Positions 45,973 to 62,693 of a DNA stretch of 64,000 bases are shown here, piece by piece (the first letter of the stretch is position 1; the number at the start of each line of letters is the position of its first letter). Source of the DNA: Gemmatimonadota bacterium (GTDB lineage Bacteria > Gemmatimonadota > Gemmatimonadetes > Longimicrobiales > Gaopeijiaceae); contig JBDHHQ010000018.1 of NCBI GenBank assembly GCA_039589315.1, positions 1-64,000 on the forward strand, in the 5' to 3' direction. The notes below the pieces were generated by a model. The model worked only from the letters and a program-made list of their open reading frames with translations, ran no database searches and had not been told where the DNA came from. The translations under genes were made by a program, and so were the position numbers.

Positions 45973-47421
45973 TCAAGCCGCCCGGTGCGCGGCCAACGCC
46001 TTGGCGTACACGTCCAGGTAGGCCTGTGCCGGCCGTTCCCAGCCGAAGTCCCGGCTCATGGCCTCGCGCATGTGGGTCTCCCACGCCTCCCGATCCGGAT
46101 AGAGGGCGATGGCCCGTCGGATGGCCCTCTCCAGGGCCGTTGAGGTGAACTCGTCGAAGACGAAGCCGGTGACCTGGTCGTCGACGGTGTCGGAAAGCCC
46201 TCCCACTCGTCGGACGACCGGGAGCGCACCATAGCGTTGCGCCCGCATCTGGGTCAGGCCGCAGGGCTCGTATTGGGACGGCATGAGCAGGCCGTCGGCA
46301 CCGGCAAGCAGCCTGTGCTCGCGACGCTCCGTGAAATCGAAGCGCACGGTCACCCGATGCGGCATCTGGCGTGCCGCCTCCGCGAGCGCGTGCTGATACC
46401 CGGCCTCACCCTCGCCCACGAACACGAACTGGGCCTCCGGAATCCGAGAGAGCAGGCCGTCCCCCACGATGAGGTCGAAGCCCTTCTGCTTCACGAGGCG
46501 GGCAGTCATGCCGAAGAGCGGGATGTCGTCGCGCACGGGCAGACCGCAGGCGGCCTGCAGGTCAGCCTTGCACGCCCACTTCCCGGCCAGCTCCTCCCTT
46601 GAGTAGGTCTGCGGCAGATCGGGGTCCGTTTCGGGATTCCAGATGTCGAGATCGATCCCGTTCAGAATCCCCACCAAGCGGTCCCCCAGGGCGATGAACG
46701 AGTCGTGCAGGCCGAACCCGCCTGCGGGCGTGCGGAGCTCGTGGGCGTGGGTCGGGCTCACCGTGCCCACGTAGTCCGAGTACGCCAGCGCCCCCTTGAG
46801 CCAGTTGACCTGGCCGTAGTATTCCATGAGGCTCCAGTGAAAGAGCTCATTGGGGAGCCCCAGCTCGTCCAGGACGTCGGGTCCGAACAGACCCTGATAG
46901 CCGGCGTTGTGGACCGACAGGATCCTGGCGATCCGTCCGTAGACGTCCTGATCGGCCGCCAGCGTCGTCTCGAGGAGAATGGGCGCCAGCGCGGTGTGCC
47001 AGTCGTGGGCGTGGAGCACGACCGGCTCCTCCACCAGATCCGGCAGCGCCTGGAGCGCCGCTTTCGCGAAGAAGGCGAACCGGATGTGGTTGTCCGGATA
47101 GTCGCCCCCGCCCTCTCCGTAGAGGCCGTCCCGATCGAACAGCTCGGGCTGGTCGATGAAGATCACCCGGGGACCGGGAGGCGGGTCGCCGAGCTGGTAC
47201 AGGCGAGCGCTTCCGGCCCACCGTCCCACCGATACGGCGAAGGGCTCGCCCAGAGGCACGAGCCCCGGCGTGTTCTGCCGTACCACGCGGTACAGGGGCA
47301 TGATGGCCGTGGTTGGGAAACCCGACTTGGCCTGGAAGGTGGCGATCCCTCGCACGGCTTCGGCGAGGCCGCCGGACCGGGCAAAGGGCCAGTACTCGGC
47401 CACGAGGTGGACGATGTTCAT
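45973..47421 (-). CDS. glgA: glycogen synthase
   Basis: PFARSGGLAE, YPDNHIRF, HAHDWHT, TVSPT.A.E, GILNGID, PSQYEPCGLTQM, VGGLSDTV. Confidence 0.93.
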   Translation of the reverse strand: MNIVHLVAEYWPFARSGGLAEAVRGIATFQAKSGFPTTAIMPLYRVVRQNTPGLVPLGEPFAVSVGRWAGSARLYQLGDPPPGPRVIFIDQPELFDRDGLYGEGGGDYPDNHIRFAFFAKAALQALPDLVEEPVVLHAHDWHTALAPILLETTLAADQDVYGRIARILSVHNAGYQGLFGPDVLDELGLPNELFHWSLMEYYGQVNWLKGALAYSDYVGTVSPTHAHELRTPAGGFGLHDSFIALGDRLVGILNGIDLDIWNPETDPDLPQTYSREELAGKWACKADLQAACGLPVRDDIPLFGMTARLVKQKGFDLIVGDGLLSRIPEAQFVFVGEGEAGYQHALAEAARQMPHRVTVRFDFTERREHRLLAGADGLLMPSQYEPCGLTQMRAQRYGALPVVRRVGGLSDTVDDQVTGFVFDEFTSTALERAIRRAIALYPDREAWETHMREAMSRDFGWERPAQAYLDVYAKALAAHRAA

Positions 47422-47615: not shown

Positions 47616-49889
47616 ATGAAGGTCGATCTGGTCGATTCGCTGCACGCCATCGCCGACGGACGCAACGCGACGCCCTTCGACGTGCTGGGCATGCACCCCA
47701 CCGACGACGTGGTGGACCGTGGCATGACGATCCGGGCCTGGCTCCCCGAAGCCTCCACCGCGGAGGTGCTCTGGAAGGGGCGTTCCGCGCCCATGAGCCG
47801 GGTGCACCCGAAGGGCGTCTACGAGGTCGTCGTGCCAGAGCCCGAACCCGTGACCTACCGCCTACGCGTGGATGGCGGCGCACCGTTCGAGGATCCGTAT
47901 CGCTTCTCTCCGGTCTTCGACGACGATGAGCTGGCGCCGATCCGGGAGGTGGACGGCCGCCCGCACCGCGTGCTCGGCGCCCACGTCATGGAGCATGAAG
48001 GCGTCTCGGGAACGGTCTTCGCCGTGTGGGCCCCGGGCGCGAGGGCGGTGAGCCTGGTCGGGGACTTCAACGGGTGGCGCGCCGGGCGGCATCCCATGCG
48101 GGCCCGGGCCTCCACCGGGGTGTGGGAGCTGTTCGTCCCCGACCTCGCCGCCGGAGAGCTGTACAAATACCGCATCCTCAGCCACGTCGAGGGGAAGGTG
48201 CTTCTGAAGACCGATCCCTACGCCCGTTCGATGCAGCTGCGGCCGGAGACGGCGTCGGTCGTGGTGGCGCCGAGCACCCATGTCTGGACGGACGGGCCAT
48301 GGACCGCAGAGCGGGCCGAACGTCAGGCGGACGGACGGCCCATATCCGTCTACGAGGTCCACCTGGGCTCGTGGAAACGAGAGCCGGGTGCGAGGCCCCG
48401 AGACGGCGCGCCGGGTTGGCAGGGCTACCGGGCGCTGGCGGCCGAGCTCATCCCGTACGTGAAGCGCCTCGGCTTCACGCACCTGGAGCTGCTGCCCGTT
48501 ACGGAGCATCCCTACGACGCCTCCTGGGGCTATCAGACTGTCGGTTACTTCGCCCCAACGGCGCGCTACGGCACGCCCGACGACCTCCGCTACTTCGTGG
48601 ACGAGGCGCACCGGGCCGGTCTCGGCGTGATCCTGGACTGGGTGCCGGCCCACTTTCCTCGCGACGCTCACGGCCTGGGCGTGTTCGACGGCACGCACCT
48701 CTACGAGCACGCCGACCCGAGGAAGGGCGTCCATCCGGACTGGGGCACCTACATCTTCAACTACGCCCGGCCGGAGGTGACCGCGTTCTTGATATCGAGC
48801 GCGCTGTACTGGATCGAGGAGTTCCACATCGACGGGCTGCGCCTCGACGCCGTCGCGTCCATGCTCTACCTCGACTACTCCCGGGACGAGGGACAATGGG
48901 TGCCCAACCAGTACGGTGGTCGGGAGAACCTCGAGGCGAGCCGGTTCCTTCGTCAACTCAACGAGACGGTGCACCGAGAGCACCCTGGCGTCCTGGTAAT
49001 GGCCGAGGAATCCACTGCCTGGCCGGGCGTCACGCACCCCGTCACAGCAGGCGGACTGGGCTTCGACGTGAAGTGGAACATGGGTTGGATGCACGACACG
49101 CTCGAGGTCATTCAATCGGATCCGCTGTTCCGGAAGGGGGTGTACGACAAGCTCACCTTTGGCATCACCTACGCGTTCTCCGAGCGCTTCCTGCTGGCGT
49201 TCTCCCATGACGAGGTCGTGCACCTCAAGGGCTCGATGCTCACCAAGATGCCCGGGCAGGTGCTGGACCAGTTCGCCAACCTGCGTCTGCTCTACGGCTA
49301 CATGTGGGCCCACCCTGGCAAGAAGCTGCTGTTCATGGGAGCGGAGCTTGCGGTGTGGCAGGAGTGGGACGTGGAGGGTGAGCTCGACTGGGCCGTGGCC
49401 AAGGAGCCTCTCCACGCCGGGATCCAGCGCTGGATCACCGAGCTGAACCACTTCTACGCCCGGGAGCCCGCCCTCCATGAGAGTGACTGGGACGGGAGGG
49501 GCTTCGAGTGGCTCGACTGCCACGACCAGGCTCGGACGACCTTGTCGTTCCTGCGCTGGTCCGGGGAGTGGAAGGACCACGTGGCGGTTGCCTGCAACTT
49601 CACGCCAGTCACGTGGGAGGGGTACCGGCTCGCGGTTCCCCACGCGGGCTCGTACGAGGTGGTGCTGAGCTCGGACGATCGGCGCTTCGGGGGCAGCGGG
49701 TCGGTGGAGCACACGGTCTTCGGCACCGTCGAGGGAGAGCTCTTCGGCCGCGACCAGTTCGTGGAGCTGACGCTGCCGCCCCTGTCGATGCTCTTCCTCA
49801 AGCAGGTGGCGCCGCCGGTCGACGCCAGGGGCTCCAGCAAGCCGTCCAGGGCGGGCCGCGCCAGGAAGGGCGGCGACACGGGCGGCTGA
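47616..49889 (+). CDS. glgB: 1,4-alpha-glucan branching enzyme (GH13)
   Basis: FAVWAP, YEVHLGSW, SWGYQ, DWVPAHFP, DGLRLDAVASMLY, AEEST, SHDEVVH, HPGKKLLFMG. Confidence 0.97.
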   Translation: MKVDLVDSLHAIADGRNATPFDVLGMHPTDDVVDRGMTIRAWLPEASTAEVLWKGRSAPMSRVHPKGVYEVVVPEPEPVTYRLRVDGGAPFEDPYRFSPVFDDDELAPIREVDGRPHRVLGAHVMEHEGVSGTVFAVWAPGARAVSLVGDFNGWRAGRHPMRARASTGVWELFVPDLAAGELYKYRILSHVEGKVLLKTDPYARSMQLRPETASVVVAPSTHVWTDGPWTAERAERQADGRPISVYEVHLGSWKREPGARPRDGAPGWQGYRALAAELIPYVKRLGFTHLELLPVTEHPYDASWGYQTVGYFAPTARYGTPDDLRYFVDEAHRAGLGVILDWVPAHFPRDAHGLGVFDGTHLYEHADPRKGVHPDWGTYIFNYARPEVTAFLISSALYWIEEFHIDGLRLDAVASMLYLDYSRDEGQWVPNQYGGRENLEASRFLRQLNETVHREHPGVLVMAEESTAWPGVTHPVTAGGLGFDVKWNMGWMHDTLEVIQSDPLFRKGVYDKLTFGITYAFSERFLLAFSHDEVVHLKGSMLTKMPGQVLDQFANLRLLYGYMWAHPGKKLLFMGAELAVWQEWDVEGELDWAVAKEPLHAGIQRWITELNHFYAREPALHESDWDGRGFEWLDCHDQARTTLSFLRWSGEWKDHVAVACNFTPVTWEGYRLAVPHAGSYEVVLSSDDRRFGGSGSVEHTVFGTVEGELFGRDQFVELTLPPLSMLFLKQVAPPVDARGSSKPSRAGRARKGGDTGG

Positions 49890-50001
49890 GCTCTCCGCCG
49901 CTCCAGTGCCCGAGTCTCCCCCCTCAATCGGGGAGACGGGGGCTCGAGGCGGAGCAACGACGGCTACTTCGACCCCTTTGTTGGGGCGTGGACGCGGGGG
50001 T

Positions 50002-51219
50002 CTACCCCGCCACCACCTGGAACCGGCTCGCCACCTTCCCGGCCATGTCGATCGTGGTCTGCAGGTCGGGATGGCGGACGACGAGCATGCCGTCGCCCAC
50101 CAGGACCTTGCGCCAGTCGCGCCGCGGCGCGCCGATGGGATTGAGGTCCATGGCACACACGTGCTGCCCGATCTCCGACAGTAGAGGCTCGAGACCCTCG
50201 TACCTCTGGATGTTCCCTCTTCCGCGAGCTCTCTTGAAGATCCACGCGGCGTTGAACTTGCGCTCCGCCGGCTGACTGAAGCTGCCGTGGACCACGGCCT
50301 CCGCCCAACCGGTGTACGTGTCGATGTCCGACGCGAAGTTGATGAGATCGACGAGGTACGCACCGGGCGGGCGACCCCCGATCTCGCCAAACACCGCCTC
50401 CCCCTCCTGCGTCCGGTACCACTCCATGTGGGTGTATCCGGTGCGGAACCCCAGCGCCTGGAGAACGGCCTCTCCCATCTTCTTGCCCGCGGCCAGCTCG
50501 GGCGTATCCGGATCCCGGTAGACCAGGGTGATGGGACTCACCCACTCGTTCTCCTTCATGACCAGCGCGCGGGGGATGTACGTAGCGATGGAGTAGTGCT
50601 GGATCCGCCCGTCGATGCAGATCGTCTCGTAGGTCATGTCGTCGCCCTCGACGAACTCCTCGACGCTGATCTCGTTCACGGACCTCAGAGCGGGCAGCAC
50701 GCCGTCGAGCTGTTCCCGGGACTCGATGCGATAGGTGTGCTCGGACCCGGCCCCGGCGATGGGCTTGACGATCACGGGATAGCCGATGTTCTCCGCAGCC
50801 TCCACGACCTGGGCGGCGGTGGTCGCGCTGTAGTGGTGGGGCGTGCGGATCCCAGCCTGGTCCAAGACGCGCTTCATGATCTCCTTGTCCCGAAACGGGA
50901 TCGTCTCCTGCACCGTCATCCCGGCCAAGCCGAGCATCTCCCGGATCCGGGCGGCCAACACCATGTACGGCTCCCACAGGCACTCGACGCGGTGGATCGT
51001 CACCCTCCGGGCGAGGTCGGCGACTTGCCCGAGGATGGCGTCCTCGTCCAGGAAGGAGCGCACCTGGATGTGCGCCTTCACCGCCGAACGTGCCGGCTCT
51101 TCCAGGGCCGTTTCCGGCTGGTCTCCGAGCCCGATCACGTTGGCGCCCACGGCAGCGAGACCGCGGGTGAAGTAGCGCATCTCCCGAGGGAAGCTGGGAG
51201 AGATCATCAACACGTTCAT
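50002..51219 (-). CDS. ATP-grasp ligase (L-amino-acid-ligase-like), paralog 1
   Basis: FRDK..MK, YP.IVKP.AGAGS..TYR, EEFVEG, THMEWY, EIGGRPPG; GAGG RBS before ATG 51219. Confidence 0.9.
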   Translation of the reverse strand: MNVLMISPSFPREMRYFTRGLAAVGANVIGLGDQPETALEEPARSAVKAHIQVRSFLDEDAILGQVADLARRVTIHRVECLWEPYMVLAARIREMLGLAGMTVQETIPFRDKEIMKRVLDQAGIRTPHHYSATTAAQVVEAAENIGYPVIVKPIAGAGSEHTYRIESREQLDGVLPALRSVNEISVEEFVEGDDMTYETICIDGRIQHYSIATYIPRALVMKENEWVSPITLVYRDPDTPELAAGKKMGEAVLQALGFRTGYTHMEWYRTQEGEAVFGEIGGRPPGAYLVDLINFASDIDTYTGWAEAVVHGSFSQPAERKFNAAWIFKRARGRGNIQRYEGLEPLLSEIGQHVCAMDLNPIGAPRRDWRKVLVGDGMLVVRHPDLQTTIDMAGKVASRFQVVAG

Positions 51220-51289
51220 GGTATCCTCTATCCTCCGGCGCAGCCGGGGTCTGAAGCGACGTGCCACGCACCGGCACGCCGCGGTTCGG

Positions 51290-52507
51290 TCATTCCAGCT
51301 CCACCCGGATCCCGGTGACGATTCGATGCAAGGCCTTCCGCACAAGCTCCGTCTCCGGATGCCGCACGATCAGGTAGCCCTCGCCTTCGTAGGTGCTGGA
51401 AGAGGGCTGGCCGACGCGCGGAAGTCGAGCCTCCACCACGAGGCTGCCCAGCTCGGCGAGCACCTCCGTGACGCCGTGAACGCGGGCGACCCTTCCCCTC
51501 CCCTGGCCGCGCAGGTATGCCGCCCCGGCGGCGTACGGGCGGGGGCCCGCCTCGAACACGTCGAAGACGACGAGGCGGGCCCAGGCGTGGAATAGGTCGA
51601 AATCCTGCGCCCGCGAGATCAGGTTGACGAAACGGGCGCCGGGCGGTCGGGCGCCGACCTCCGAGATGGCCACGCTTCCATCGGGGCGCCGGAACCACTC
51701 CATGTGGCTCATGCCGGTGTGCATGCCGAGGGCGTCGAGCGCCTGCCCGGCCACCGCCCGGATGCCGTCGTAGCGGGCGTCGTCCACATCCCGCGGCGTG
51801 AGGACGCACCACTGGATCCAGGGCTCCTCGACCACCCGAAGGGCGGCGGGCAGATAGTCGTTCACGGAGTGCCAGACCACCCGCCCGCCGATGCTGACCG
51901 AGTCGAACGAATGCTCCTCGCCCGCCACGAACTCCTCCATCATCACGGGCCGTTGGAGGGAAGCGGGCATGGCTTGCAGGAAAGCCGTCAGGTCGTCGAC
52001 GCTCTCGAGCCGGTAGGTGCCCCGGGCGCCGGAGCCCGCCTGAGGCTTGACGATCACCGGATAGCCGACGGCGGCGGTGAACGCGGCCGCTTCGTCGCCG
52101 GAGCGGGCCAGACCGTGTTGAGCACAGGGCAGATGGTGCGCGCGCAGCACCCGCTTCATGCGGGCCTTGTCGCGGAAGTTCTCGGCCACGTCGGCGCTCA
52201 TCCCGGCGATCCCAAGCCGGTCGCGTACGTGGCCCAGTGGCACCTGCAGCTCCTCGAGGGTTCCGAGAAGGCGGTGAATCCGGCCGCGCGTCGCCAGGCG
52301 CTCCACGGCAGTGGCGAGCTGGTCGGGATCCAGCGCGTCTCCCACTCGCAGATGGAACGCGAGCCGCCCTCTGAGGCCGGCCGGCAGCTTCCGAGGCGGT
52401 TCCTGGCTGATCAAGGTGGCGCGGACGCCGTCGAGCCTGGAGACTGCGTCGATGAAGCGCAGCGTGGTCTCGGCGAAGAAGGGCGCGACAAAGACGACGT
52501 TCTTCAT
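51290..52507 (-). CDS. ATP-grasp ligase, paralog 2
   Basis: FRDKARMK, YPVIVKPQAGSGARGTYR, EEFVAG, SHMEWF, EVGARPPG. Confidence 0.9.
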   Translation of the reverse strand: MKNVVFVAPFFAETTLRFIDAVSRLDGVRATLISQEPPRKLPAGLRGRLAFHLRVGDALDPDQLATAVERLATRGRIHRLLGTLEELQVPLGHVRDRLGIAGMSADVAENFRDKARMKRVLRAHHLPCAQHGLARSGDEAAAFTAAVGYPVIVKPQAGSGARGTYRLESVDDLTAFLQAMPASLQRPVMMEEFVAGEEHSFDSVSIGGRVVWHSVNDYLPAALRVVEEPWIQWCVLTPRDVDDARYDGIRAVAGQALDALGMHTGMSHMEWFRRPDGSVAISEVGARPPGARFVNLISRAQDFDLFHAWARLVVFDVFEAGPRPYAAGAAYLRGQGRGRVARVHGVTEVLAELGSLVVEARLPRVGQPSSSTYEGEGYLIVRHPETELVRKALHRIVTGIRVELE

Positions 52508-52707
52508 TCGGAGTGCCGGCAAGCACGGGGGAAGCCGGCGTCTGTCGGGTGATCTCGGTCCGGCGGAGGCCGGAGAAGAGTAAGGAAGGTAAACCCGCAC
52601 AGGCCAGGGGGGTACCTCGGCCGTCCCGTTTCGCTATCTTTGGCGCCGTTTCGCGGCCTATCGGCATCGGTCGCGCCAGTCCACCCCGACGACGGACACA
52701 TCGACTC

Positions 52708-53931
52708 ATGCACGCGGTCTTCGTCGAGCCGGCCTTCCCGTCGAACCAGAAGGAATTCGTTCGCGCTCTGCACCAGGCCGGTGCCCAGGTCACGGCCGTC
52801 GGCGAGCGCCCCAGGGAGGCGCTGGACGACGACCTCGAGCGCTGGCTACTCCACTACGAACAGGTCCCCTCGGTCGTCGACGCCCAAGACCTCGCACGGG
52901 TGGTGGGCGCCATTCACGCCCGCAAGCCGGTGGGGCGGTTGGAGACGACGGTCGAGGCCCACATCATGGCTGCAGCCCAGGTCCGCGAAGCCCTGGGCAT
53001 ACCCGGCACGTCCGTGCGCACGGCTTTCCTTTGCCGGGACAAGCCGGCCATGAAGGAGGTCCTGCGAGAGGGTGGTGTAGCGTGTGCTCAATCCATGGGC
53101 AGCGGCGACTCCGAGGCCATCCGGTCCTTCGCCGAGAGCGTCGGCTATCCATTGGTCCTGAAACCCAGGGCGGCCGCGGGAGCCTCGGGCACGTATCGGG
53201 TGGACGACCGGGAGCAACTGGACGGCGTCTTGACTCAGTTGGGCGTGGGTCACGGAGGCCAGGTGGCCGTCGAGGAGTTCATCGAGGGTCACGAGGCCTT
53301 CTACGACACGATCACCATCGGGGGTAGCGTCGCCCACGAGTTCATCACGCACTACTACCCGAACGTCCTCGAGGCCATGCGCACGCGCTGGATCTCGCCG
53401 CAGTTCATCACCACGAACCGCATCGAGTCCGCTCCAGACTACCAGGAGGTGCTGGAGCTGGGGCGCAAGGTCATCCGCGTGCTCGAGATCGACACCTCCG
53501 CGACCCACATGGAGTGGTTCTTCGGGTCCAAGGGCCTGAAGTTCTCGGAGATCGGCTGTCGACCGCCCGGCGTCCGGGCGTGGGACCTCTACGCCGCAGC
53601 CAACGAGATCGACATCTACTACGAATGGGCCATGGCCGTGCTCTGGGGCCGGACGTCGCGCAAGGCGTCTCGGGCGTATTCGGCCGGAATCGTCGCGCTG
53701 CGGCCGGACCAAGACGGCCGGATTCGTGGCTACGACGGCCTCGATGAGGTTCGCCGGCGCTTCGGCGAGTGGATTCTCGACCACCACCTTCCCCCTGAGG
53801 GGACACCCACCCAGCCCGTGGAGGGCGGGTACATGGCCAACGCCTGGATCCGCATGCGCCATCCCGACTACGACGCGCTACGCTCCATGCTCGATCAGGT
53901 CGGCGAAATCGTGCAGGTGAGGGCAGGGTGA
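52708..53931 (+). CDS. ATP-grasp ligase, paralog 3
   Basis: CRDKPAMK, YPLVLKPRAAAGASGTYR, EEFIEG, THMEWF, EIGCRPPG. Confidence 0.9.
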   Translation: MHAVFVEPAFPSNQKEFVRALHQAGAQVTAVGERPREALDDDLERWLLHYEQVPSVVDAQDLARVVGAIHARKPVGRLETTVEAHIMAAAQVREALGIPGTSVRTAFLCRDKPAMKEVLREGGVACAQSMGSGDSEAIRSFAESVGYPLVLKPRAAAGASGTYRVDDREQLDGVLTQLGVGHGGQVAVEEFIEGHEAFYDTITIGGSVAHEFITHYYPNVLEAMRTRWISPQFITTNRIESAPDYQEVLELGRKVIRVLEIDTSATHMEWFFGSKGLKFSEIGCRPPGVRAWDLYAAANEIDIYYEWAMAVLWGRTSRKASRAYSAGIVALRPDQDGRIRGYDGLDEVRRRFGEWILDHHLPPEGTPTQPVEGGYMANAWIRMRHPDYDALRSMLDQVGEIVQVRAG

Positions 53932-54863
53932 GCAACGGTCCTGCCCGGGTCGTTCTGCTGGGGTCCCACTCGGGCGTCCCGACGGGGGGGCCCTCCTTGG
54001 ACGAGCTCGGCCTCGACGGACCCGTGGCCACGGTACGAGCTGGCTGGCAGGAGTGGGAAGGGGAGCCCCATTCGTTGACCCTGGCAGCGGACGGCTGGAA
54101 TCTCCGCCTGTGGGAGCGGGCGGAGCGGATCTGGGCCGAGGACCCCGAGCTCACCCAGGCGCACCACGCGATGCAGGAGAAGATCCGCCTCCTCCGGCGC
54201 ATCTACAACGTCCGCCTCTCCCACCTCGCCGACGCCTACCTCGACATCGACGCCCGGGAGGGGCCGGCAGACGTGCTGGACCCGGAGCGTCACGCCGCGT
54301 TCGAGGCCGTGCGGGAGCTGGACCGACGCCAGGTGCAGCGGGTGGCCGGCATCCGCCGGGAGTTCGAGGAGCGCTACCGCCCCGGAGACCGACACGCCGT
54401 CGCGCGCGAACGCGCCGAGGTGGCGCGTATCCTGACCGACACGCCGGTGGTGGCGGTCGACGGCGGCCACGTCGCCATCCTCCTCAACCGGCTGCGTCTG
54501 TTCGGCCTGGCCGAGCTGCTGGCCGGCCGTGCGGTGGTCGCTTGCTCGGGCGGAGCCATGGTTCTTTCGGAGCGCCTCGTCCTCTTCCACGACTCACCTC
54601 CCTGGGGGCCCGGGCACGCCGAGGTGGCGGAAGCCGGCCTCGGCCTCTTCCCTGACGTCGTCGTCCTGCCCCACGCCGAGACGCGCCTGCGACTGGACGA
54701 TCCCACCCGGGTGAGCCGGCTCGCCCGCCGCGTGGCTCCGGCACCGTGTGTCCTCCTCGACCGGGACGCCCGGCTCGAGTGGGACGGCCGGCGCTGGACG
54801 GTTGCCCGGGCTCGGCATCTCACCGCTTCAGGGACAGTGACACTCTGGGAGGTGGCGGCGTGA
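53928..54863 (+). CDS. Peptidase S51/cyanophycinase-like (class I GATase fold) serine hydrolase
   Basis: VDGGHV, nucleophile elbow VACSGGAM, GLGL, LPH; GTGA-coupled to ATP-grasp 3. Confidence 0.72.
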   Translation: MSNGPARVVLLGSHSGVPTGGPSLDELGLDGPVATVRAGWQEWEGEPHSLTLAADGWNLRLWERAERIWAEDPELTQAHHAMQEKIRLLRRIYNVRLSHLADAYLDIDAREGPADVLDPERHAAFEAVRELDRRQVQRVAGIRREFEERYRPGDRHAVARERAEVARILTDTPVVAVDGGHVAILLNRLRLFGLAELLAGRAVVACSGGAMVLSERLVLFHDSPPWGPGHAEVAEAGLGLFPDVVVLPHAETRLRLDDPTRVSRLARRVAPAPCVLLDRDARLEWDGRRWTVARARHLTASGTVTLWEVAA

Positions 54864-54868
54864 GGGGC

Positions 54869-56047
54869 ATGCCCAAGGATCGGGAACGCGCCTCCGGGAG
54901 GGTCGATCACCACGGGTTGGCAATCGCCGAGCTGGTGGATGCCTCGCCGCCGGACGCGGACGCCGTGAGCCGATTCATCGAGGAACACGAGTTCCCCATC
55001 GTCGAGGGAACGCGTTGTACGTTCGTGTTCCAGGGCAAAGCCCGGGAGGTGCGACTTCGGCACTGGATCTTCGGACTGGCCACCGCCGAGCGCTTCCATC
55101 GCGTACCGGGCACGGATCTCTGGTACCACGTCATGGAGATCCCCGACGGCTCCAGGGTCGAGTACAAGCTCGAGGTGGAAGACGGTCGCCCGGCCCACTG
55201 GATCACGGATCCGCTGAACCCTCACCTGGCCCACGACCCCTTCGGCGCCAACTCCGTGTGCTACGGGCAGGGATACGAGGTGCCGGCGTGGTCCCGCGAG
55301 GATCCCCTGGCGGCACCGGGCAGCCTGGAGGAGCGGGTGTTTCACAGCGACGCCCTGGACTCGCCGAGGCGGGTGACGCTGTTCAGGCCAGCCCGGTTCA
55401 AGGAGACCCGGCGCTACCCCCTGCTCGTGGTGCACGACGGTGGTGACTACCTCCGGTTCGCCAACCTGGAGACGGTCCTGAACAACCTGATCCACCGCCT
55501 CGAGGTTCCGGGCGTGGTGGCCGCGTTGACGCACCCGGCCGACCGGATGGAGCAGTACCGGGACTCCGAGAGTCACGCCCGCTTCCTGACCGAGGAGCTG
55601 GTGCCTATGCTCGAGGAGGAGCTGCCCCTCCTGGGGACCCCGGCCGGACGCTGTCTGATGGGTGCGAGCCTGGGCGCCGTGGCCTGCCTCTCCACGGCCA
55701 TCCGGCACCCCGGCTTCTACGGCCGACTCCTGCTCCAGTCGGGCTCGTTCGCGTTCTCGGACATCGGCAACCACGACCGTGGCCCGGCTTTCGACCCCAT
55801 CGCTGACATGGTGAACCGGTACCGGAGCCAGCCGTTCGCCGTGAGCGACCGCGTGTTCGTGAGCTGCGGCATGTACGAGTCGCTCATCTACGAGAACCGG
55901 TCCCTCGTCCCCCTCCTGCGCGAGACCGGAATGGACATCCGCTACGTCGAGGCGAGGGACGGGCACAATTGGGAGAACTGGCGGGACCGGCTGCGCGAGG
56001 GTCTGTCGTTCCTGTTCCCCGGACCCCTCTGGTGGGTCTACGATTGA
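54869..56047 (+). CDS. Fes-like alpha/beta esterase with N-terminal CBM48/E-set-like domain (alternative GTG start at 54860)
   Basis: TFVF...LWY.....YKL...WITDPLNP; YPLLVVHDG; GASLG; GHNWENWRD. Confidence 0.85.
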   Translation: MPKDRERASGRVDHHGLAIAELVDASPPDADAVSRFIEEHEFPIVEGTRCTFVFQGKAREVRLRHWIFGLATAERFHRVPGTDLWYHVMEIPDGSRVEYKLEVEDGRPAHWITDPLNPHLAHDPFGANSVCYGQGYEVPAWSREDPLAAPGSLEERVFHSDALDSPRRVTLFRPARFKETRRYPLLVVHDGGDYLRFANLETVLNNLIHRLEVPGVVAALTHPADRMEQYRDSESHARFLTEELVPMLEEELPLLGTPAGRCLMGASLGAVACLSTAIRHPGFYGRLLLQSGSFAFSDIGNHDRGPAFDPIADMVNRYRSQPFAVSDRVFVSCGMYESLIYENRSLVPLLRETGMDIRYVEARDGHNWENWRDRLREGLSFLFPGPLWWVYD

Positions 56048-56108
56048 GAGGCCCGTCGGGACGGGCGCCCGTCGCTCGGATCCGAACCGCTCGACACGAG
56101 GAATCTCG

Positions 56109-57350
56109 ATGGCTGACGTAACCCGAAAGATCGGTCTGTCACTGGGCGCCGACATCTGCTGGCCCATCGCCTACACCGAGGTGCTCCGGCGCTTGGACCT
56201 GGCGATCCCCATCGGAGACGATACGATCAGGCTCGACGTGGAGCGGATGACGATCGAGCCGTTCGACCTCCGGGAGCACACGCCGTACGACCTGGTGATC
56301 GACCGGCTGACGCACTGGTATCACCCGCGCCGGGAGTGGATCAAGAAGGCCGTGCTGCTCGACGACGTCTACGTGTTCAACAACCCCTGGTCCGTGCAGT
56401 CGATGGAGAAGCTCAGCTCGTACTGCGCCATGATCAGGCTGGGGCTTCCCATTCCGGAGACGTGGCTCATTCCGCCGAAAACGTACTTCGATCACTCCCA
56501 GGAGCTGCAGACCACGTTAGAGCGCTACGCACGGTATTTCGACCTGCCCGCAATCGGCGGCGAGGTTGGCTACCCGCTGTTCATGAAGCCCTACGACGGC
56601 GGCGGCTGGCGGGCGGTGTCCAGGATCGCCAACGCCGAGGAGCTCGAGACGGCGTACGAGGAGAGTGGCGATGCCGTGATGCACCTACAGGAAGGCATCG
56701 AGCCGTTCGACCGCTTCGTCCGGTGCATCGGCCTCGGGCCCCAGACCCGCATCGTGCTCTACGACATCGATGCCCCAATCCACGACCGATACACGATGGA
56801 GCGGGGCTTCCTCGAGGACGAGGAGCACAAGCTCATCCGCGACATGACCCTGGTGATCAACGCCTTCTTCGCCTGGGACTTCAACTCGTGCGAGCTGATC
56901 CACCGCGACGGCGTGTGGCACGCCATCGACTTTGCCAATCCCTGCCCGGACTCGCAGGTGACGTCGCTGCACTATCACTTCCCGTGGCTGATCAAGGCCA
57001 ATATCCGATGGTCCGTATACGCTGCCGCCACCGGTCGCAGAATGAAGCCCATGGGCTGGGAGCGCTTCTTCAACGCCGTCGACGACGACATGACCTTGCG
57101 GGAGCGTCTGGACTCCCTCCTGCACCTCGTGCACGAGCGCTACGAGACCGAGCGCTTCGAGGCGTTCTGCCACCGTCACCTGCCCCACCTGGACGAGGTG
57201 ACGCACGAGTTCTTCGGTACGGAGGTGGCGCACGACGCAGTGCGGCAGAAGGTGGCGGCCCTGTTCCCCGAGCACGAAGTGGAGGAGTTCACGGAGCTGA
57301 TGTGGAGTCGCATCCAGACCTGGCGGGACGTTGAAGGGGCCTCGGCATGA
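56109..57350 (+). CDS. RimK/GshB-like ATP-grasp protein
   Basis: IDRLTH, VFNNP, LGLPIPET, YPLFMKPYDGGGW, LQEGI, FNSCE, AIDFANPCPD. Confidence 0.85.
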   Translation: MADVTRKIGLSLGADICWPIAYTEVLRRLDLAIPIGDDTIRLDVERMTIEPFDLREHTPYDLVIDRLTHWYHPRREWIKKAVLLDDVYVFNNPWSVQSMEKLSSYCAMIRLGLPIPETWLIPPKTYFDHSQELQTTLERYARYFDLPAIGGEVGYPLFMKPYDGGGWRAVSRIANAEELETAYEESGDAVMHLQEGIEPFDRFVRCIGLGPQTRIVLYDIDAPIHDRYTMERGFLEDEEHKLIRDMTLVINAFFAWDFNSCELIHRDGVWHAIDFANPCPDSQVTSLHYHFPWLIKANIRWSVYAAATGRRMKPMGWERFFNAVDDDMTLRERLDSLLHLVHERYETERFEAFCHRHLPHLDEVTHEFFGTEVAHDAVRQKVAALFPEHEVEEFTELMWSRIQTWRDVEGASA

Positions 57351-58075
57351 AGCGGACCGAAACCTGGCATTCTTCCCGGCTCGAACGGGAGATCACGGCC
57401 GTGCGGTGGGGGGAGACGGGGATCCCGGTGCTGATCTTCCCCACGGCGGGTGGCGACGCAGAGGAGATCGAGCGGTTCCTGATCATCCAGACATTGGCGC
57501 CGTTCCTCGACGCGGGGCGCATCAAGGTCTACTCGTGCGACTCGCTCGCGGGACAGGCCATGTTGGCCGGGGAGGGATCTCCCCAGCACCAGATGGCCAT
57601 GATTAACCGCTACCAGCAGTACATCGGCGAGGAGCTCGTGCCCATGATCCGCGCCGATTGTCGGAGCGAGGACATCGGAGTCGTCGCCGCAGGCGCCTCC
57701 ATCGGGGCGTTCACGGCCCTGGCGGCCCTCTGCAGATACCCGGAGGCCTTCACCCACGCCATGTGCCTGAGCGGCACGTTCGACCTGTCGCGGTTCGTGG
57801 ATGCCCCTATCACTGGCGACTTCTACGTTTCGTCGCCGGTCCACTACCTCCCCGAGCTCCACGGTCCCGGCCTGGAGGCGATCCAGCGGCGGTTCATCCT
57901 GCTGGCGTCGGGTGAGGGCCGCGCGGAGGATATCGGCGAGTCGTGGCGGGTCGCCAACGTGCTCGGGCAGAAGGGCATCCCGAACAGGGTAGACTCGTGG
58001 GGACCGGACTGGCACCACGACTGGCCGACCTGGCGGAACATGCTCCACAAGTACCTGGACGAGCTGGCGCCCTGA
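57347..58075 (+). CDS. short alpha/beta-fold esterase
   Basis: G.PVLIFPTAGG, GASIG, LSG.FD, HHDWPTW; ATGA overlap with the upstream ATP-grasp gene. Confidence 0.88.
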   Translation: MKRTETWHSSRLEREITAVRWGETGIPVLIFPTAGGDAEEIERFLIIQTLAPFLDAGRIKVYSCDSLAGQAMLAGEGSPQHQMAMINRYQQYIGEELVPMIRADCRSEDIGVVAAGASIGAFTALAALCRYPEAFTHAMCLSGTFDLSRFVDAPITGDFYVSSPVHYLPELHGPGLEAIQRRFILLASGEGRAEDIGESWRVANVLGQKGIPNRVDSWGPDWHHDWPTWRNMLHKYLDELAP

Positions 58076-58179
58076 AGCCACGCTGGTGCGGGCGCTCCCG
58101 CCCTGGCCTGATCAACCCCAAGGTGTCGTGCCGGCGCTCCCGCCCCGACCGACCCCGTCGGGCGAACCTCCCGGCGTGG

Positions 58180-60345
58180 TCAGGCCGTGGGCGGGTCGCC
58201 CCCGTCTCCCTCGCCCGTCATGGCCGGGACGTAGTACAGGTTGGCGTATTCCTTCAGCATCCGGTCGGTGGCGAACTGGCGGCCCGCTACCCACAGGGCG
58301 TGCTTCATCCGCTGGACCCACCCCACCGGGATGCCTCTTCGGTCCCGTAGGTGATACAACGGGACTACCTCGTCCTCGAGCAGATTGAACAGTTGGTCCC
58401 AGTCGTCCTCGTCGGGGTCCGTGAGGTCGGGCGCGGTGGGAATCGCCCAGCCGTTGATGCCGCTGAAGCCCTCGGCCCACCAGCCGTCCAACGTCCCGAG
58501 CTGTGGGACCATGTTCAGCGCCGCCTTCATGCCGCTGGTGCCCGAGGCCTCTTTCGGCACGCGGGGCAGGTTCAGCCACACGTCCACGCCTTCGTAGAGG
58601 GCGTGGGCCAGGTGCATCTCGTAGTCCTCCACGAAGGCGATGCGGCCTCCGAACCTGGGGTCCCGGGCCAGCATGTAGACCTTCTGCAGGATGCGCTTGC
58701 CATCGTCGTCCGCCGGGTGCGCCTTCCCGGCGAACACGATCTGCACCGGGCGCCAGGGGTTGGTGACCAGGCGGTGCAAGCGCGATTCGACCCGCAGGAA
58801 CAGGTCGGCCCGCTTGTAGGCCGCGAACCGGCGGGCGAAGCCGAGGGTCAGGGCCTCGGGGTCCAGCAGGGGGCCGGCAGCAGCCAGGTGTCCCGCCGCG
58901 GGCCACCGGTCCTTCCAGCGGCGCCTCGCTTGCTCCCGGATGAACCGGAAGGTCTGGAGCTTGAGCTTCTGGTGCAGCTCCCAGACGTGGACGTCGTCCA
59001 GAGACAATACGCGGTCCCATAGGCCGGGCTCGTCCATGCGGCTGGCCCATCCCTTGCCCAACGCGCCGTCCAGGAGATGCTCCACGCCGGAGGACATCCA
59101 GGTCGAACGATGCACCCCGTTGGTCACGTGCCCGATGGGAACGTCCTCGGCTCGCCGACCCGGCCAGAGCTCCGTCCACATGCGTCGGCTCTCCGCGCCG
59201 TGCCGCTTCGACACGCCGTTCACGCCCCTGCTGAGTCGAATCGCGCACGCCGTCATATGGAACCGAGCGCCATCCGAGACGGGGGCATGCCCCAGCTTCA
59301 TGAAGGTGGCCTCGTCGACGCCCAGGTCTTCCCAGACGGGGCCCACGCACCGCTCGATCTGCTCGACCGTGAAGGTGTCGTGACCCGCCGGCACGGGAGT
59401 GTGGGTCGTGAACACAGAGCGCGTCCGCACCTCCGACACGGCGTCCTCGAAGGCCATACCTGCCTGGATGAGCTCACGGATGCGCTCCACCATCATGAAC
59501 GCCGCGTGGCCTTCGTTGGCGTGCCAGCACGATGGCTCGATCCCGAGGGCGCGGAGCACCCGTACCCCCCCCACTCCCAGGATCCACTCCTGCCTGAGCC
59601 TCAGCTCTTCGCCAGTACCGTACAGCTTGCCGGTCAGGTCCCGGTCCTCTGTGTCGTTGGCCTCGAGGTTCGTGTCCAAGAGGAACACTCGGGTCCGGCC
59701 GACCCGCATCTCCCAGACCGCGAGCTCCACCGACCGGCCCTCGGTGACGACCGTCGCCAGGGTCTCGCCGCCCTCGGCGTTTCGCAGCCGCGTTAGTGGC
59801 ATGGCTTCGGGCTTGAACGACTCGTCTTCGGCCACTTGCCAACCCTCCTCGTCGATCCGCTGGTCGAAGTAGCCGCGGGCGTAGAGGAGGCCCACGCCCA
59901 CCATGGGGATCCCGAGGTCGGAGGCCGTCTTCACGTGGTCCCCGGCCAGGATCCCCAGCCCCCCCGAGTAGATGGGGACCGAGTTGTGGATCCCGAACTC
60001 GGCACAGAAGTACGCCACGGGCCGATCGTCCCGGGCCTTCACCTCTCGGTAGGCATCGGCGAACCACGTGTCGGCCGTGGTCTCCAGGGCGCCCATGGAC
60101 TGCATCACGGACCGGTATAGGTGCAGGAAGTCCGGGTCGTGGGCGCACGCCGCCAGTCGAGCCGGCTCCACGCGGTGCAGCAGCTGGATGGGGTCGTGGT
60201 GGGTCAGCGACCACAGGGTCGGGTCGATCCGCTTGAACATGCGGCGCGCGGAGGCGTTCCACGACCACGCGAGGTTCAAAGCGATGTCGGCGAGCCCCTG
60301 GATGGGGTCCGGGAGATACGGGATCTTGCGTCGGGCAGCGTTCAT
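58180..60345 (-). CDS. glgP: alpha-glucan (glycogen) phosphorylase
   Basis: YSGGLG.LAGDH, RLRQE, HANEGH, FTTHTPVPAGHD, TNGVH, FARRF..YKR, GKAHPAD, EASGTSGMKA. Confidence 0.96.
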   Translation of the reverse strand: MNAARRKIPYLPDPIQGLADIALNLAWSWNASARRMFKRIDPTLWSLTHHDPIQLLHRVEPARLAACAHDPDFLHLYRSVMQSMGALETTADTWFADAYREVKARDDRPVAYFCAEFGIHNSVPIYSGGLGILAGDHVKTASDLGIPMVGVGLLYARGYFDQRIDEEGWQVAEDESFKPEAMPLTRLRNAEGGETLATVVTEGRSVELAVWEMRVGRTRVFLLDTNLEANDTEDRDLTGKLYGTGEELRLRQEWILGVGGVRVLRALGIEPSCWHANEGHAAFMMVERIRELIQAGMAFEDAVSEVRTRSVFTTHTPVPAGHDTFTVEQIERCVGPVWEDLGVDEATFMKLGHAPVSDGARFHMTACAIRLSRGVNGVSKRHGAESRRMWTELWPGRRAEDVPIGHVTNGVHRSTWMSSGVEHLLDGALGKGWASRMDEPGLWDRVLSLDDVHVWELHQKLKLQTFRFIREQARRRWKDRWPAAGHLAAAGPLLDPEALTLGFARRFAAYKRADLFLRVESRLHRLVTNPWRPVQIVFAGKAHPADDDGKRILQKVYMLARDPRFGGRIAFVEDYEMHLAHALYEGVDVWLNLPRVPKEASGTSGMKAALNMVPQLGTLDGWWAEGFSGINGWAIPTAPDLTDPDEDDWDQLFNLLEDEVVPLYHLRDRRGIPVGWVQRMKHALWVAGRQFATDRMLKEYANLYYVPAMTGEGDGGDPPTA

Positions 60346-60740
60346 CGAGTCCGGCGGGACGGTTTCGTGATGGAGGGAGCGGCGCCGGTGCCGGCGCCGT
60401 ACGTCCGAGAGTGCGGAGCGGTATAATCTGTCACGAAGTGTCCTCGAGTTGAAGCGGCAGCGCGCTTCGACCGCAGGCCCGCGGACCGCGCCCGGTGGGA
60501 GCTCCAGACCCGGCGTCGTCCTCCGGTCAGCGGCCGCTCCGCTTCCACCGTCTTCGCCCCTTCCCAAATCTCCGATTCTCGATAGCATACGGATGACGGA
60601 ATAGACTCGCCGCCGCCCGACGGGCGCGGCGGGGTCGGAGGATCCTTCGTGACGCGCTCGTGACGTCCCGCTGCGAAAGCGTCATGCAAGCCTCGGTATC
60701 ATTCGGATAGACGACAACGCCATTTGGAATGAGGAGTTTC

Positions 60741-61067
60741 ATGAGCATCCGTGAGCAGCTTACCGCGTTCATCGAAGACCACACCGACGGATGGGACCAC
60801 GCCCAATGGATCGGGTTCCTGCAGACCCTGGACCAGCAGGGCATCGACGTAAGCGACCCGGACGATCTGGGCGTGAAGCTGGAGAGCGCCCGGCTGGGAT
60901 GGGAGCTTCGGCGCCGTGCGGTCCCGGGGCTGGGCCCCAAGCGCATCGATGCCGTGGTGGGCCGCTTCGGGTCTCTGTGGAGCCTCAAGCAGGCGACACC
61001 GGACGAGATCGCCGAGATCCCGACGATCCACAAAGGCCTGGCGGAGAAGCTGAGCGACGCTCTCTAG
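60741..61067 (+). CDS. small helix-hairpin-helix domain protein
   Basis: VPGLGPKR and A.IPTIHKGLAEKL HhH pair; GAGGAG RBS. Confidence 0.8.
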   Translation: MSIREQLTAFIEDHTDGWDHAQWIGFLQTLDQQGIDVSDPDDLGVKLESARLGWELRRRAVPGLGPKRIDAVVGRFGSLWSLKQATPDEIAEIPTIHKGLAEKLSDAL

Positions 61068-61094: not shown

Positions 61095-62693
61095 TCACTC
61101 CATTGAGGCCACGGAGGGTTCGAACAGGGACCGGGGGACGCCGTGGGTGTCCCGATTCGCCCCCGTCTCCCGATCCAGGATGGCCACCGTCGTCCGATAG
61201 AGGCGATCCGCCTCCTCCCGGCTGTTCCCGATGGACGTCACCCCCACTTTCCCGTACTGGGAAAGGGCGCCGATCATGAAGAATATGACGCCCTTGAGTG
61301 TCGAGTGGTTGAAGTGGATCCCGTGAGCCACCGTCAGATCGAAGAGGTCCTCGGGCAGCAGGCCACGATACGCCGGTGACTTGAGGTTGTCGGTGGCGTA
61401 GTAGTACTTGGCCTGGCCGTCCTCGGCCGTATACAGGCCGCTTTCCCTGTCGAACCGGCCACGGGCCAGGAACTCCAGGGCCATGAACGGCGGCGTGGTC
61501 CCGCCCATGCGCAGATTGATCTCCACGGCGTAGCTCTTCCAGGGCCGACCCTCGGATCTGGTGACGAGGAAGTCCACGCCGAAGCGCCCGATGACCCCGT
61601 TCCCCGCGAGCACTTGCCCGATGCGCTCCGCGTCGGCGCAGATCAGGGCGCGATAGTCGGCGTGGGCCGGAAACCGACATCCCAGGTAGACTTGTCCGGT
61701 GCTGCCCCCGAGGACCTGATCGTGGGTCGAGAGCACCGAGAGCTCGCCGTGGGGGTGGATGCGGAGCTGGACGCTCGGAGACACCACCTCGTCGTCCTCG
61801 ATCCACTCCTCGACGATGCCTGCCATCTCGCCGAGCTTGCCGAAGAAGCGATCCGGTGTCTCTCGTCCCCCCGGCCACTCGAGCTCCTCCAGACCTGCGC
61901 TCAGCGCGGCTCGCCGCTCCGGTCCCCCTACCGGAAGCTCGGCCGGGAACCGGTACACGCCGTTGCCCTCTCCGGCGAAGCTTTCGTTGAGCTTGAGGAC
62001 CGCCTTGCGGAGGGTCGGACGCCCCGTGACCAGGTCGTCGAGGGCGTCCACCACCTGATCCCGCGTGCGCAGATCGTTGACGCCCCGCGCGAGCGACACG
62101 CCTGCCTGTGCGAACACCTTGCGCGACCCCGATTTGGTGCCCATCCAGAGCAGTTCGGGATCGACCGAGTTCAAGGGAATGCCGAGCTCCACCGCCAGCC
62201 GGCGCTCCAGAATCGTGGAATTGTAGACGGTGAGGTAGGCCCGCTCGGGTGGCCCCATCCAGGACCGGATCCTCTCGATCACCCGGGGCCGGTCCAGGAT
62301 CTTCGCCGTGAGGGGCCTGGGGCTCGCATCGTAGAGGCAGAGCACCAGCAGACGGCTCAGGGCCCGGCCCAGGGGCACACCGGGGAGATGCTGCAGATAG
62401 TACTCGAGCGTTTCGGCATGGATGGGTTGGCTGGTGACGTAGACGGCACGGCCCGCGGGGTCGGCCAACCGGATCAGCGTGAAGAGGAGCCGTTCCTCGT
62501 AGAAGGCGGCACCCTCGACCTTCGCCAGCTCCTCCTGGTTGACGCTGACCGAGGGCACCACGACCGACGTGTGCGGCCAGGCCGGGTTGCTCCGCAGCCT
62601 TTCCGAGATGACCGGCAGGTGGGCCTTGAGCTCCTGAAAGCGGGCCAACTCCTCCGGCGAGCCCAGCTCACCGTACGGGGAGTCTGTGATCAT
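61095..62693 (-). CDS. PGM1-related ATP-grasp peptide ligase-like protein
   Basis: YEERLLF.L, WMGTKSGSRK.F, VLKLNESFAGEGN, SPSVQ, STHDQ.LGG, YLGCRFPA, EINLRMGGTT. Confidence 0.82.
   Translation of the reverse strand: MITDSPYGELGSPEELARFQELKAHLPVISERLRSNPAWPHTSVVVPSVSVNQEELAKVEGAAFYEERLLFTLIRLADPAGRAVYVTSQPIHAETLEYYLQHLPGVPLGRALSRLLVLCLYDASPRPLTAKILDRPRVIERIRSWMGPPERAYLTVYNSTILERRLAVELGIPLNSVDPELLWMGTKSGSRKVFAQAGVSLARGVNDLRTRDQVVDALDDLVTGRPTLRKAVLKLNESFAGEGNGVYRFPAELPVGGPERRAALSAGLEELEWPGGRETPDRFFGKLGEMAGIVEEWIEDDEVVSPSVQLRIHPHGELSVLSTHDQVLGGSTGQVYLGCRFPAHADYRALICADAERIGQVLAGNGVIGRFGVDFLVTRSEGRPWKSYAVEINLRMGGTTPPFMALEFLARGRFDRESGLYTAEDGQAKYYYATDNLKSPAYRGLLPEDLFDLTVAHGIHFNHSTLKGVIFFMIGALSQYGKVGVTSIGNSREEADRLYRTTVAILDRETGANRDTHGVPRSLFEPSVASME

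Follow-up and report, generated by a model that had tools for sequence, protein, structure and literature searches.

The stretch of DNA analyzed here, referred to below as the window, comprises 64,000 nucleotides of a Gemmatimonadota bacterium of the family Gaopeijiaceae, and in it a block of seven genes, designated A through G, fills the junction between glgB and glgP, the genes for the glycogen branching enzyme and alpha-glucan phosphorylase (Table 1). The block encodes four ATP-grasp ligases (A, B, C, and F) and three proteins of hydrolase type (D, E, and G), and it is a real, widespread, and apparently uncharacterized module whose link to alpha-glucan genes is strong, though not universal. 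The evidence supports a cytoplasmic ligase-plus-hydrolase system tied to alpha-glucan metabolism, since at least three gene contexts show enrichment of the module next to glucan genes, and since the module co-occurs across genomes with the glycogen synthase GlgA and in other lineages is often accompanied by a GlgA clade of its own. A search by title and start of abstract found no published description of the module, most subscription journals and the 2009 amidoligase survey of Iyer et al., which may mention the neighborhood, being outside its scope.

A lack of enrichment near glycogen genes had been named beforehand, in a preliminary description of this locus, as one result that would refute the proposal; enrichment was found. 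Loci that include C and at least 1.6 kb upstream of it were collected with G and therefore represent the closest G matches, not even samples; of these, 28 of 33 from Gemmatimonadota, 23 of 27 from other genomes, and 16 of 21 from metagenomes contain a glucan gene. A paralogue of glgA, here called glgA* (protein GlgA*), stands directly 5′ of C in 20 of the 27 other genome loci and 14 of the 21 metagenome loci (0/33 in Gemmatimonadota), and it remains there when other module genes are rearranged. When genomes were drawn evenly, glgA was found directly 5′ of C in 8 of 35 loci from Myxococcota and 8 of 25 from Planctomycetota, and five further Planctomycetota have a GlgA match no more than 2 kb from C by coordinates; within approximately 9 kb, 18 of the 25 planctomycete loci contain a glucan gene. 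Planctomycetota also provide a third context, in which a GT3-phosphorylase fusion, GH57, a debranching enzyme, and GlgC are encoded near the module. At one locus (L331:343-4548, minus strand), the gene adjoining the module specifies a GT3 glycogen synthase-glucan phosphorylase fusion of 1401 residues.

Genome content tells a similar story. GlgA is found in 36 of 36 C-bearing Myxococcota as against 61 of 115 others, and in 27 of 31 C-bearing Planctomycetota as against 108 of 170 others, profiles that are confounded by kinship, genome size, and incompleteness. In a tree of 106 GlgA sequences, enriched for module-linked GlgA and built without planctomycete housekeeping GlgA, the 61 GlgA* sequences form one clade with an SH-like support of 1.0 (FastTree, support from the unrooted tree), and 59 of them have a module gene in the fetched stretch. 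Conversely, among evenly drawn genomes, those scoring highest with a GlgA* profile carry C in 12 of 13 cases in Myxococcota and 17 of 18 in Planctomycetota. The glgA of the window falls outside GlgA* and groups in a Gemmatimonadota clade. Because glgA* lies 5′ of C elsewhere and a glgA of the host's own clade lies near the cassette here, the cassette reaches a glycogen synthase in two ways, either carrying one or sitting in the host's locus. A complex prediction for GlgA* and C returned a score of 0.00, gave no verdict, and was used neither way. At two loci (L327 and L330), the module, glgB, and glgP are accompanied by highly diverged GT5 genes (27-28% identity), which occupy a long branch of the GlgA tree.

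The counts with which the genes occur together in the 80 genome loci found with G (76 have F, 73 each D and E, 67 C, 50 B, and 48 A) indicate that their grouping is not due to chance. In six of six loci from the window's own family that have no block at this site (five from genomes that lack the module and one from a genome that has it on another contig), glgB and glgP abut, so the boundaries originally drawn, 50002-58075, are the natural ones. In a second family, represented by one genus and seven loci, the block is beside glgP in all seven, lies between glgB and glgP in six, and is inverted as a unit in three. The block occurs in Gemmatimonadota, Myxococcota, Planctomycetota, and others; when evenly drawn genomes are scored by C, 36 of 151 in Myxococcota and 31 of 201 in Planctomycetota have the cassette, as do 8 of 201 genomes sampled in Gemmatimonadota. 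In the Atlas cluster to which F belongs, Actinomycetota is the most frequent phylum. Within the window's family, 5 of 40 genera have the module, every one of them belonging to the 15 in which glgA is found (Fisher p 0.005, a value overstated by kinship and incomplete genomes). The module is nevertheless optional for glycogen: C is missing from 10 of those 15 glgA genomes and from 61 of 97 Myxococcota with GlgA, in keeping with the original view that canonical glycogen metabolism does not need it.

Three of the ligases, A, B, and C, were described at the outset as paralogous and amino-acid-ligase-like, and they proved to be so. Their pairwise identities are 31-33%, and ATP and metal motifs are kept in A (44 sequences), B (47), and C (65); in A, the conserved motifs are DK, KP, HMEW, and EIxxRP. 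A and B travel as a tandem pair. The best solved relatives of C are L-amino-acid ligases, with 4wd3 as the top match in PDB, and C resembles these enzymes (4wd3, 3vot, and BacD, 3vmm) in its HxE and ExxxR motifs, its ATP-grasp fold, and its size. It differs from them in that the score against BacD is 32 bits, where the cut-off is 850, and in that the three paralogues kept together in the module have esterases and glycogen synthase, rather than antibiotic tailoring genes, as partners.

The fourth ligase, F, is an ATP-grasp protein as first proposed, but it is only distantly RimK-like. It keeps the ATP-grasp lysines and metal-site acids of the RimK and LysX glutamate ligases, aligns with C by profile (96.5%), and has six residues (K101, K160, R205, E262, D274, and N277) that are invariant in 65 of 65 sequences. 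Nonetheless, it matches no Pfam family, its scores of 27.2 bits with the LysX model TIGR02144 and 17.6 bits with the RimK model TIGR00768 are far below the respective cut-offs of 275.6 and 143.4, and it is coupled to an alpha/beta hydrolase. That hydrolase is G. F immediately precedes G in 123 of 140 loci, and among the seven longer G homologues examined, out of 22 matches, one (P0121) alone looks like a clean F-G fusion, the others being apparently frameshifted. This order, together with the fusion, suggests that F hands an activated acyl group to G.

G itself, the short esterase of the preliminary description, is a single-domain alpha/beta hydrolase of family PF00756 in which Ser118 and His224 are invariant. 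This family includes sugar acyltransferases such as antigen 85. Distant bacteria also have two-gene units that consist of G and a ligase similar to A, B, and C.

E is a serine esterase that resembles enterochelin esterase (Fes) more closely than the CBM48-type enzymes to which it was first likened. The closest fold to its structure model (pLDDT 91.7) is that of Fes (3mga; Z 34.3, rmsd 2.8 over 345 residues), whereas comparison of the whole protein with the CBM48-CE1 esterase 7b5v gives a Z of 27.8; the putative triad, Ser267/Glu337/His366, is invariant in 62 of 62 homologues. E shares a two-domain architecture and the Ser/Glu/His residues with Fes and with the CBM48-CE1 feruloyl esterases, yet at approximately 22% identity and 90.4 bits it is well short of the Fes cut-off of 222. 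Fes cleaves serine-lactone esters. No siderophore or xylan genes were seen among the conserved neighbors of the module.

D has the S51/cyanophycinase fold attributed to it, but its activity as a hydrolase is in question for many family members. Its model (pLDDT 89) has a long helical insertion at approximately residues 61-170 and is similar to pseudo-CphB (7uqv; Z 14.9) and to cyanophycinase (3en0; Z 14.7, rmsd 3.6 over 205 residues), with a score of 17 bits against the cyanophycinase model TIGR02069 (cut-off 126.6). Of 55 homologues, 47 keep the S51 serine (Ser207) and only 28 the histidine (His249). Judged by these residues, D may be a pseudo-peptidase in many genomes, although the copy in the window has both.

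The frequent partners of the module offer a clue to its chemistry. Of 220 module loci, 63 contain GCS2-CBS, 23 AstE/AspA, and 18 FGase, and no locus has both AstE and FGase; these families, and C26, act on acyl-glutamate or aspartate chemistry. The partners point to glutamate, which the unit proposed below would probably contain. The window's own genome (6.67 Mb, 95% complete) encodes, unlinked to the cassette, a GCS2-CBS and AstE/AspA pair (contig C56, 19171-22273) and a GCS2 and C26 pair (contig C22, 30046-31955). GCS2-CBS was considered as a core part and rejected, as its profile does not track the module in this phylum: it is present without F in 20 of 23 genomes of the window's family and missing from all seven F-bearing genomes of family f7. 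We therefore regard GCS2-CBS as accessory, and these counts weigh against the proposal that follows.

We propose, tentatively and at somewhat less than an even chance, that the ligases build an aminoacyl or peptidyl group, which G transfers to alpha-glucan as an ester and E removes. The four ligases, A, B, C, and F, would spend ATP on converting carboxylates to acyl phosphates, and would in this way assemble a short, probably glutamate-containing, aminoacyl or peptidyl unit. F would then hand this unit to Ser118 of G, with which it is coupled, and G would transfer it to a hydroxyl on the glucan chains that GlgA makes (GlgA* in other lineages). On mobilization, the Fes-like E would cleave the glucan ester, and the peptide thus freed would be trimmed by D, which, where it has lost its histidine, would instead bind or serve as a scaffold. 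For glycogen itself such a decoration would be optional. The chemical steps are all ones that we infer, from a gene set, a gene order, folds, conserved catalytic residues, and a glycogen synthase link that can be observed directly. In broader terms, several phyla could be making aminoacylated or peptidylated glycogen by means of GlgA*, the ligases, an aminoacyl-transferase hydrolase that is independent of CoA and tRNA, and a Fes-like reversal; we consider this generalization possible but not yet probable.

Several observations weigh against the covalent decoration of glucan and, in part, against the glucan link as a whole. The N-terminal domain of E is recognized as Enterochelin_N in 59 of 62 homologues and, weakly, as CBM_48 in two of 62; a published account (PMC8040265) reports that starch binding was not seen for CBM48 domains appended to CE1 esterases; and on these points, with the closer relationship to Fes, E offers no argument for glucan binding. 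Only 12 of 35 evenly drawn Myxococcota C loci have a glucan gene within approximately 9 kb, and two of the 61 glgA* genes have no module gene nearby. Copies of the module genes are also found well away from glucan metabolism. A G-family gene was detected in 47 Acidobacteriota genomes, one of them unpublished (G229); glgA, glgB, glgP, and GH57, the glucan families queried, are near it in none of 40 such loci, and the four of these that carry D/E/F-type genes likewise have no glucan match. In a related, type-II module, all 20 loci encode F2 (F of the window is about 90 residues longer than these relatives), a circularly permuted ATP-grasp, GCS2, and C26, with G2 in 15 and E2 in 11. Searching 201 Gemmatimonadota genomes (including the unpublished G157) gave 53 F matches, most of which belong to this type, and glucan genes are nearby in 6 of the 20 loci. 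A-B pairs without C occur in 13 of the 201, and of eight such loci with 2.5 kb of flanking sequence, three adjoin a GH57 gene and five adjoin pyrimidine genes. The two-gene units of a ligase and G on Pararhizobium and Peptoclostridium replicons have no glucan neighbor. Since the Acidobacteriota, type-II, A-B, and ligase-G copies mostly lack glucan genes, the ligase-hydrolase core is older and broader than its link to glucan. Plasmid records yielded no F match; G-like matches were present in 15, and the three examined had no glucan genes. At one locus (L364), a type-II module is mixed with A and B and adjoins a GH57 gene.

What remains of the original idea of a write/erase system acting on alpha-glucan is thus the ligase-hydrolase system and its tie to alpha-glucan metabolism; the argument from CBM48 fails as evidence, many copies have no glucan neighbor, and covalent attachment is a proposal. 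The same distribution lends substance to the chief alternative, that the product is a soluble, nonribosomal peptide, such as a solute or a nitrogen reserve of gamma-glutamyl or N-acyl-glutamate type, which is turned over by D, E, and G and is co-regulated with glycogen without ever being joined to it. Such a product would account for the copies without glucan neighbors, for a type-II module found whole at each of 20 loci, most of them without glucan genes nearby, and for partner genes that encode amide ligases and amidases. Even so, we think it rather unlikely, though it must be taken seriously: a dedicated GlgA clade 5′ of C and the co-occurrence with GlgA in all 36 C-bearing Myxococcota exceed what co-regulation needs, and an all-amide product would seem to have no use for two serine esterases.

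It is improbable, in our judgment, that the synthase acts on the small molecule, with GlgA* or GlgA glucosylating the ligase product to give a glucosyl or maltooligosyl conjugate of low molecular weight, or a glycogen primer, in place of a decorated polymer. GlgA* does have residues specific to its clade, most notably in a motif aligned to 'DNxxRF' of E. coli GlgA, where Glu108 is found in 61 of 61 sequences and Asn in 40 of 43 others, and a second GlgA is kept in 10 of 12 C-bearing Myxococcota that have GlgA*. Yet the canonical KTGGL, HDW, RxxxQKG, and EPCGL motifs are kept in GlgA*, which is the sole GT5 found in one genome (G201) and in 13 of 17 C-bearing Planctomycetota that have it; moreover, the cassette of the window has no GlgA*, its neighbor being a housekeeping-type GlgA of Gemmatimonadota. 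Less probable again is a regulatory system in which RimK-type ligation tags proteins, possibly the glycogen enzymes, and D, E, and G remove the tags. The weak similarity of F to RimK and LysX and the tight adjacency of glgA* and C would fit such a system, but A, B, and C resemble small-molecule L-amino-acid ligases, and no conserved small carrier or substrate protein was seen among the neighbors, in which genes shorter than 70-80 codons were not called.

Cyanophycin metabolism (CphA1, CphB of family S51, and pseudo-CphB, 7uqv) has in common with the module ATP-grasp ligation, an S51-fold protein, and the setting of a storage compound. The differences are considerable: the CphA synthetase is a protein of approximately 870 residues, as against ligases of 405-407 residues that score below its cut-off, the long insertion and frequent loss of histidine set D apart, and the module adds two esterases and a glycogen synthase. 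That the module is a split system for a cyanophycin-like polymer, with the ligases as synthetase and D as cyanophycinase, is very improbable in spite of the fold of D and the AstE/AspA-family neighbors at 23 of 220 loci, since a CphA-type protein is missing (the scores of A, B, and C are 25-45 bits, where the cut-offs are 850-877), the S51 histidine is missing from 27 of 55 D homologues, and that pathway has no place for two esterases. In sum, the module resembles a storage system of amino-acid ligases and peptidases and fails membership of the cyanophycin, RimK/LysX, and Fes families.

The organization of the locus itself agrees closely with the preliminary description. All seven open reading frames are intact and contiguous, in two divergent units (A and B reverse, C through G forward), with four-base overlaps of C with D (GTGA) and F with G (ATGA) and five bases separating D from E. 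A simple hydropathy scan revealed no clear membrane or signal segment in A through G, consistent with the absence of obvious signal peptides noted earlier. The GC3 of the seven genes, 0.86-0.90, matches that of the flanking glg genes and so provides no sign of recent transfer. No signal exceeding that of shuffled sequences was obtained in a promoter and terminator scan. At the two ends of the cassette, the convergent junctions 49890-50001 and 58076-58179 contain short G+C-rich repeats, as judged by eye.

Table 1. Genes of the cassette and its surroundings in the window (contig C18 of genome G000), and related loci elsewhere
Feature	Position	Strand	Basis
A: ATP-grasp ligase, L-amino-acid-ligase-like paralogue, 405 aa	50002..51219	-	Pfam ATP-grasp
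B: ATP-grasp ligase, second paralogue, 405 aa	51290..52507	-	Pfam ATP-grasp, paralogue identity, motifs
C: ATP-grasp ligase, third paralogue, 407 aa	52708..53931	+	Best PDB match 4wd3
D: peptidase-S51 (cyanophycinase/PepE) fold, 311 aa	53928..54863	+	Structure model
E: enterochelin-esterase (Fes)-like serine esterase, N-terminal beta-sandwich, 392 aa	54869..56047	+	Structure model
F: divergent ATP-grasp ligase, weakly LysX/RimK-like, coupled to G, 413 aa	56109..57350	+	
G: single-domain PF00756 alpha/beta hydrolase, 242 aa, predicted acyl acceptor/transferase	57347..58075	+	
glgA: GT5 glycogen synthase, Gemmatimonadota clade, context gene	45973..47421	-	TIGR02095 over cut-off; tree
glgB: branching enzyme, left flank	47616..49889	+	Over NCBIfam GlgB cut-off
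glgP: alpha-glucan phosphorylase, right flank	58180..60345	-	TIGR02094 over cut-off
H: PGM1/BesA-like ATP-grasp ligase, with IQCH-like ATP-grasp match	61095..62693	-	Beyond phosphorylase
Type-II loci (esterases, F2, circularly permuted ATP-grasp, GCS2, C26), other Gemmatimonadota	L111-L130, e.g., L121:8069-11852		

Beyond the phosphorylase gene lies H, which recurs in 12 of 220 module loci, adjoins C or G in several, and is likely an accessory fifth ligase of the module. Between the two (60729-61067, plus strand) is a gene for a 112-residue protein with a C-terminal helix-hairpin-helix; small genes like it adjoin glgP in related loci whether the module is present or absent. To the left of the cassette, the window contains two GH57 genes in addition to glgA, whose product reads RSGGL where the canonical motif is KTGGL. 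The genome has glgA, glgB, and glgP, but no GlgC that passes the family cut-off was found in it.

Bacterial glycogen is usually treated as a plain glucose polymer. Acylated alpha-glucans do exist, such as the methylglucose lipopolysaccharide of mycobacteria, which resembles the product we propose in being a cytoplasmic alpha-1,4-glucan with ester-linked acyl groups; it differs in that CoA-dependent acyltransferases, not ATP-grasp ligases, build it and in that it has no amino-acid groups. If the product were instead a soluble peptide, the module would still specify an undescribed pathway, but one that is a variant of known ligase/peptidase clusters. A cassette that is tied to glycogen synthase, and in part to a synthase clade of its own, points to unrecognized chemistry on or beside a central storage polymer. 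Should decorated glycogen prove to be the product, it would represent a combined store of carbon and nitrogen, or a chemically protected glycogen, with no described counterpart, and the relay of an acyl group from ligase to hydrolase would add a route by which polysaccharides are esterified.

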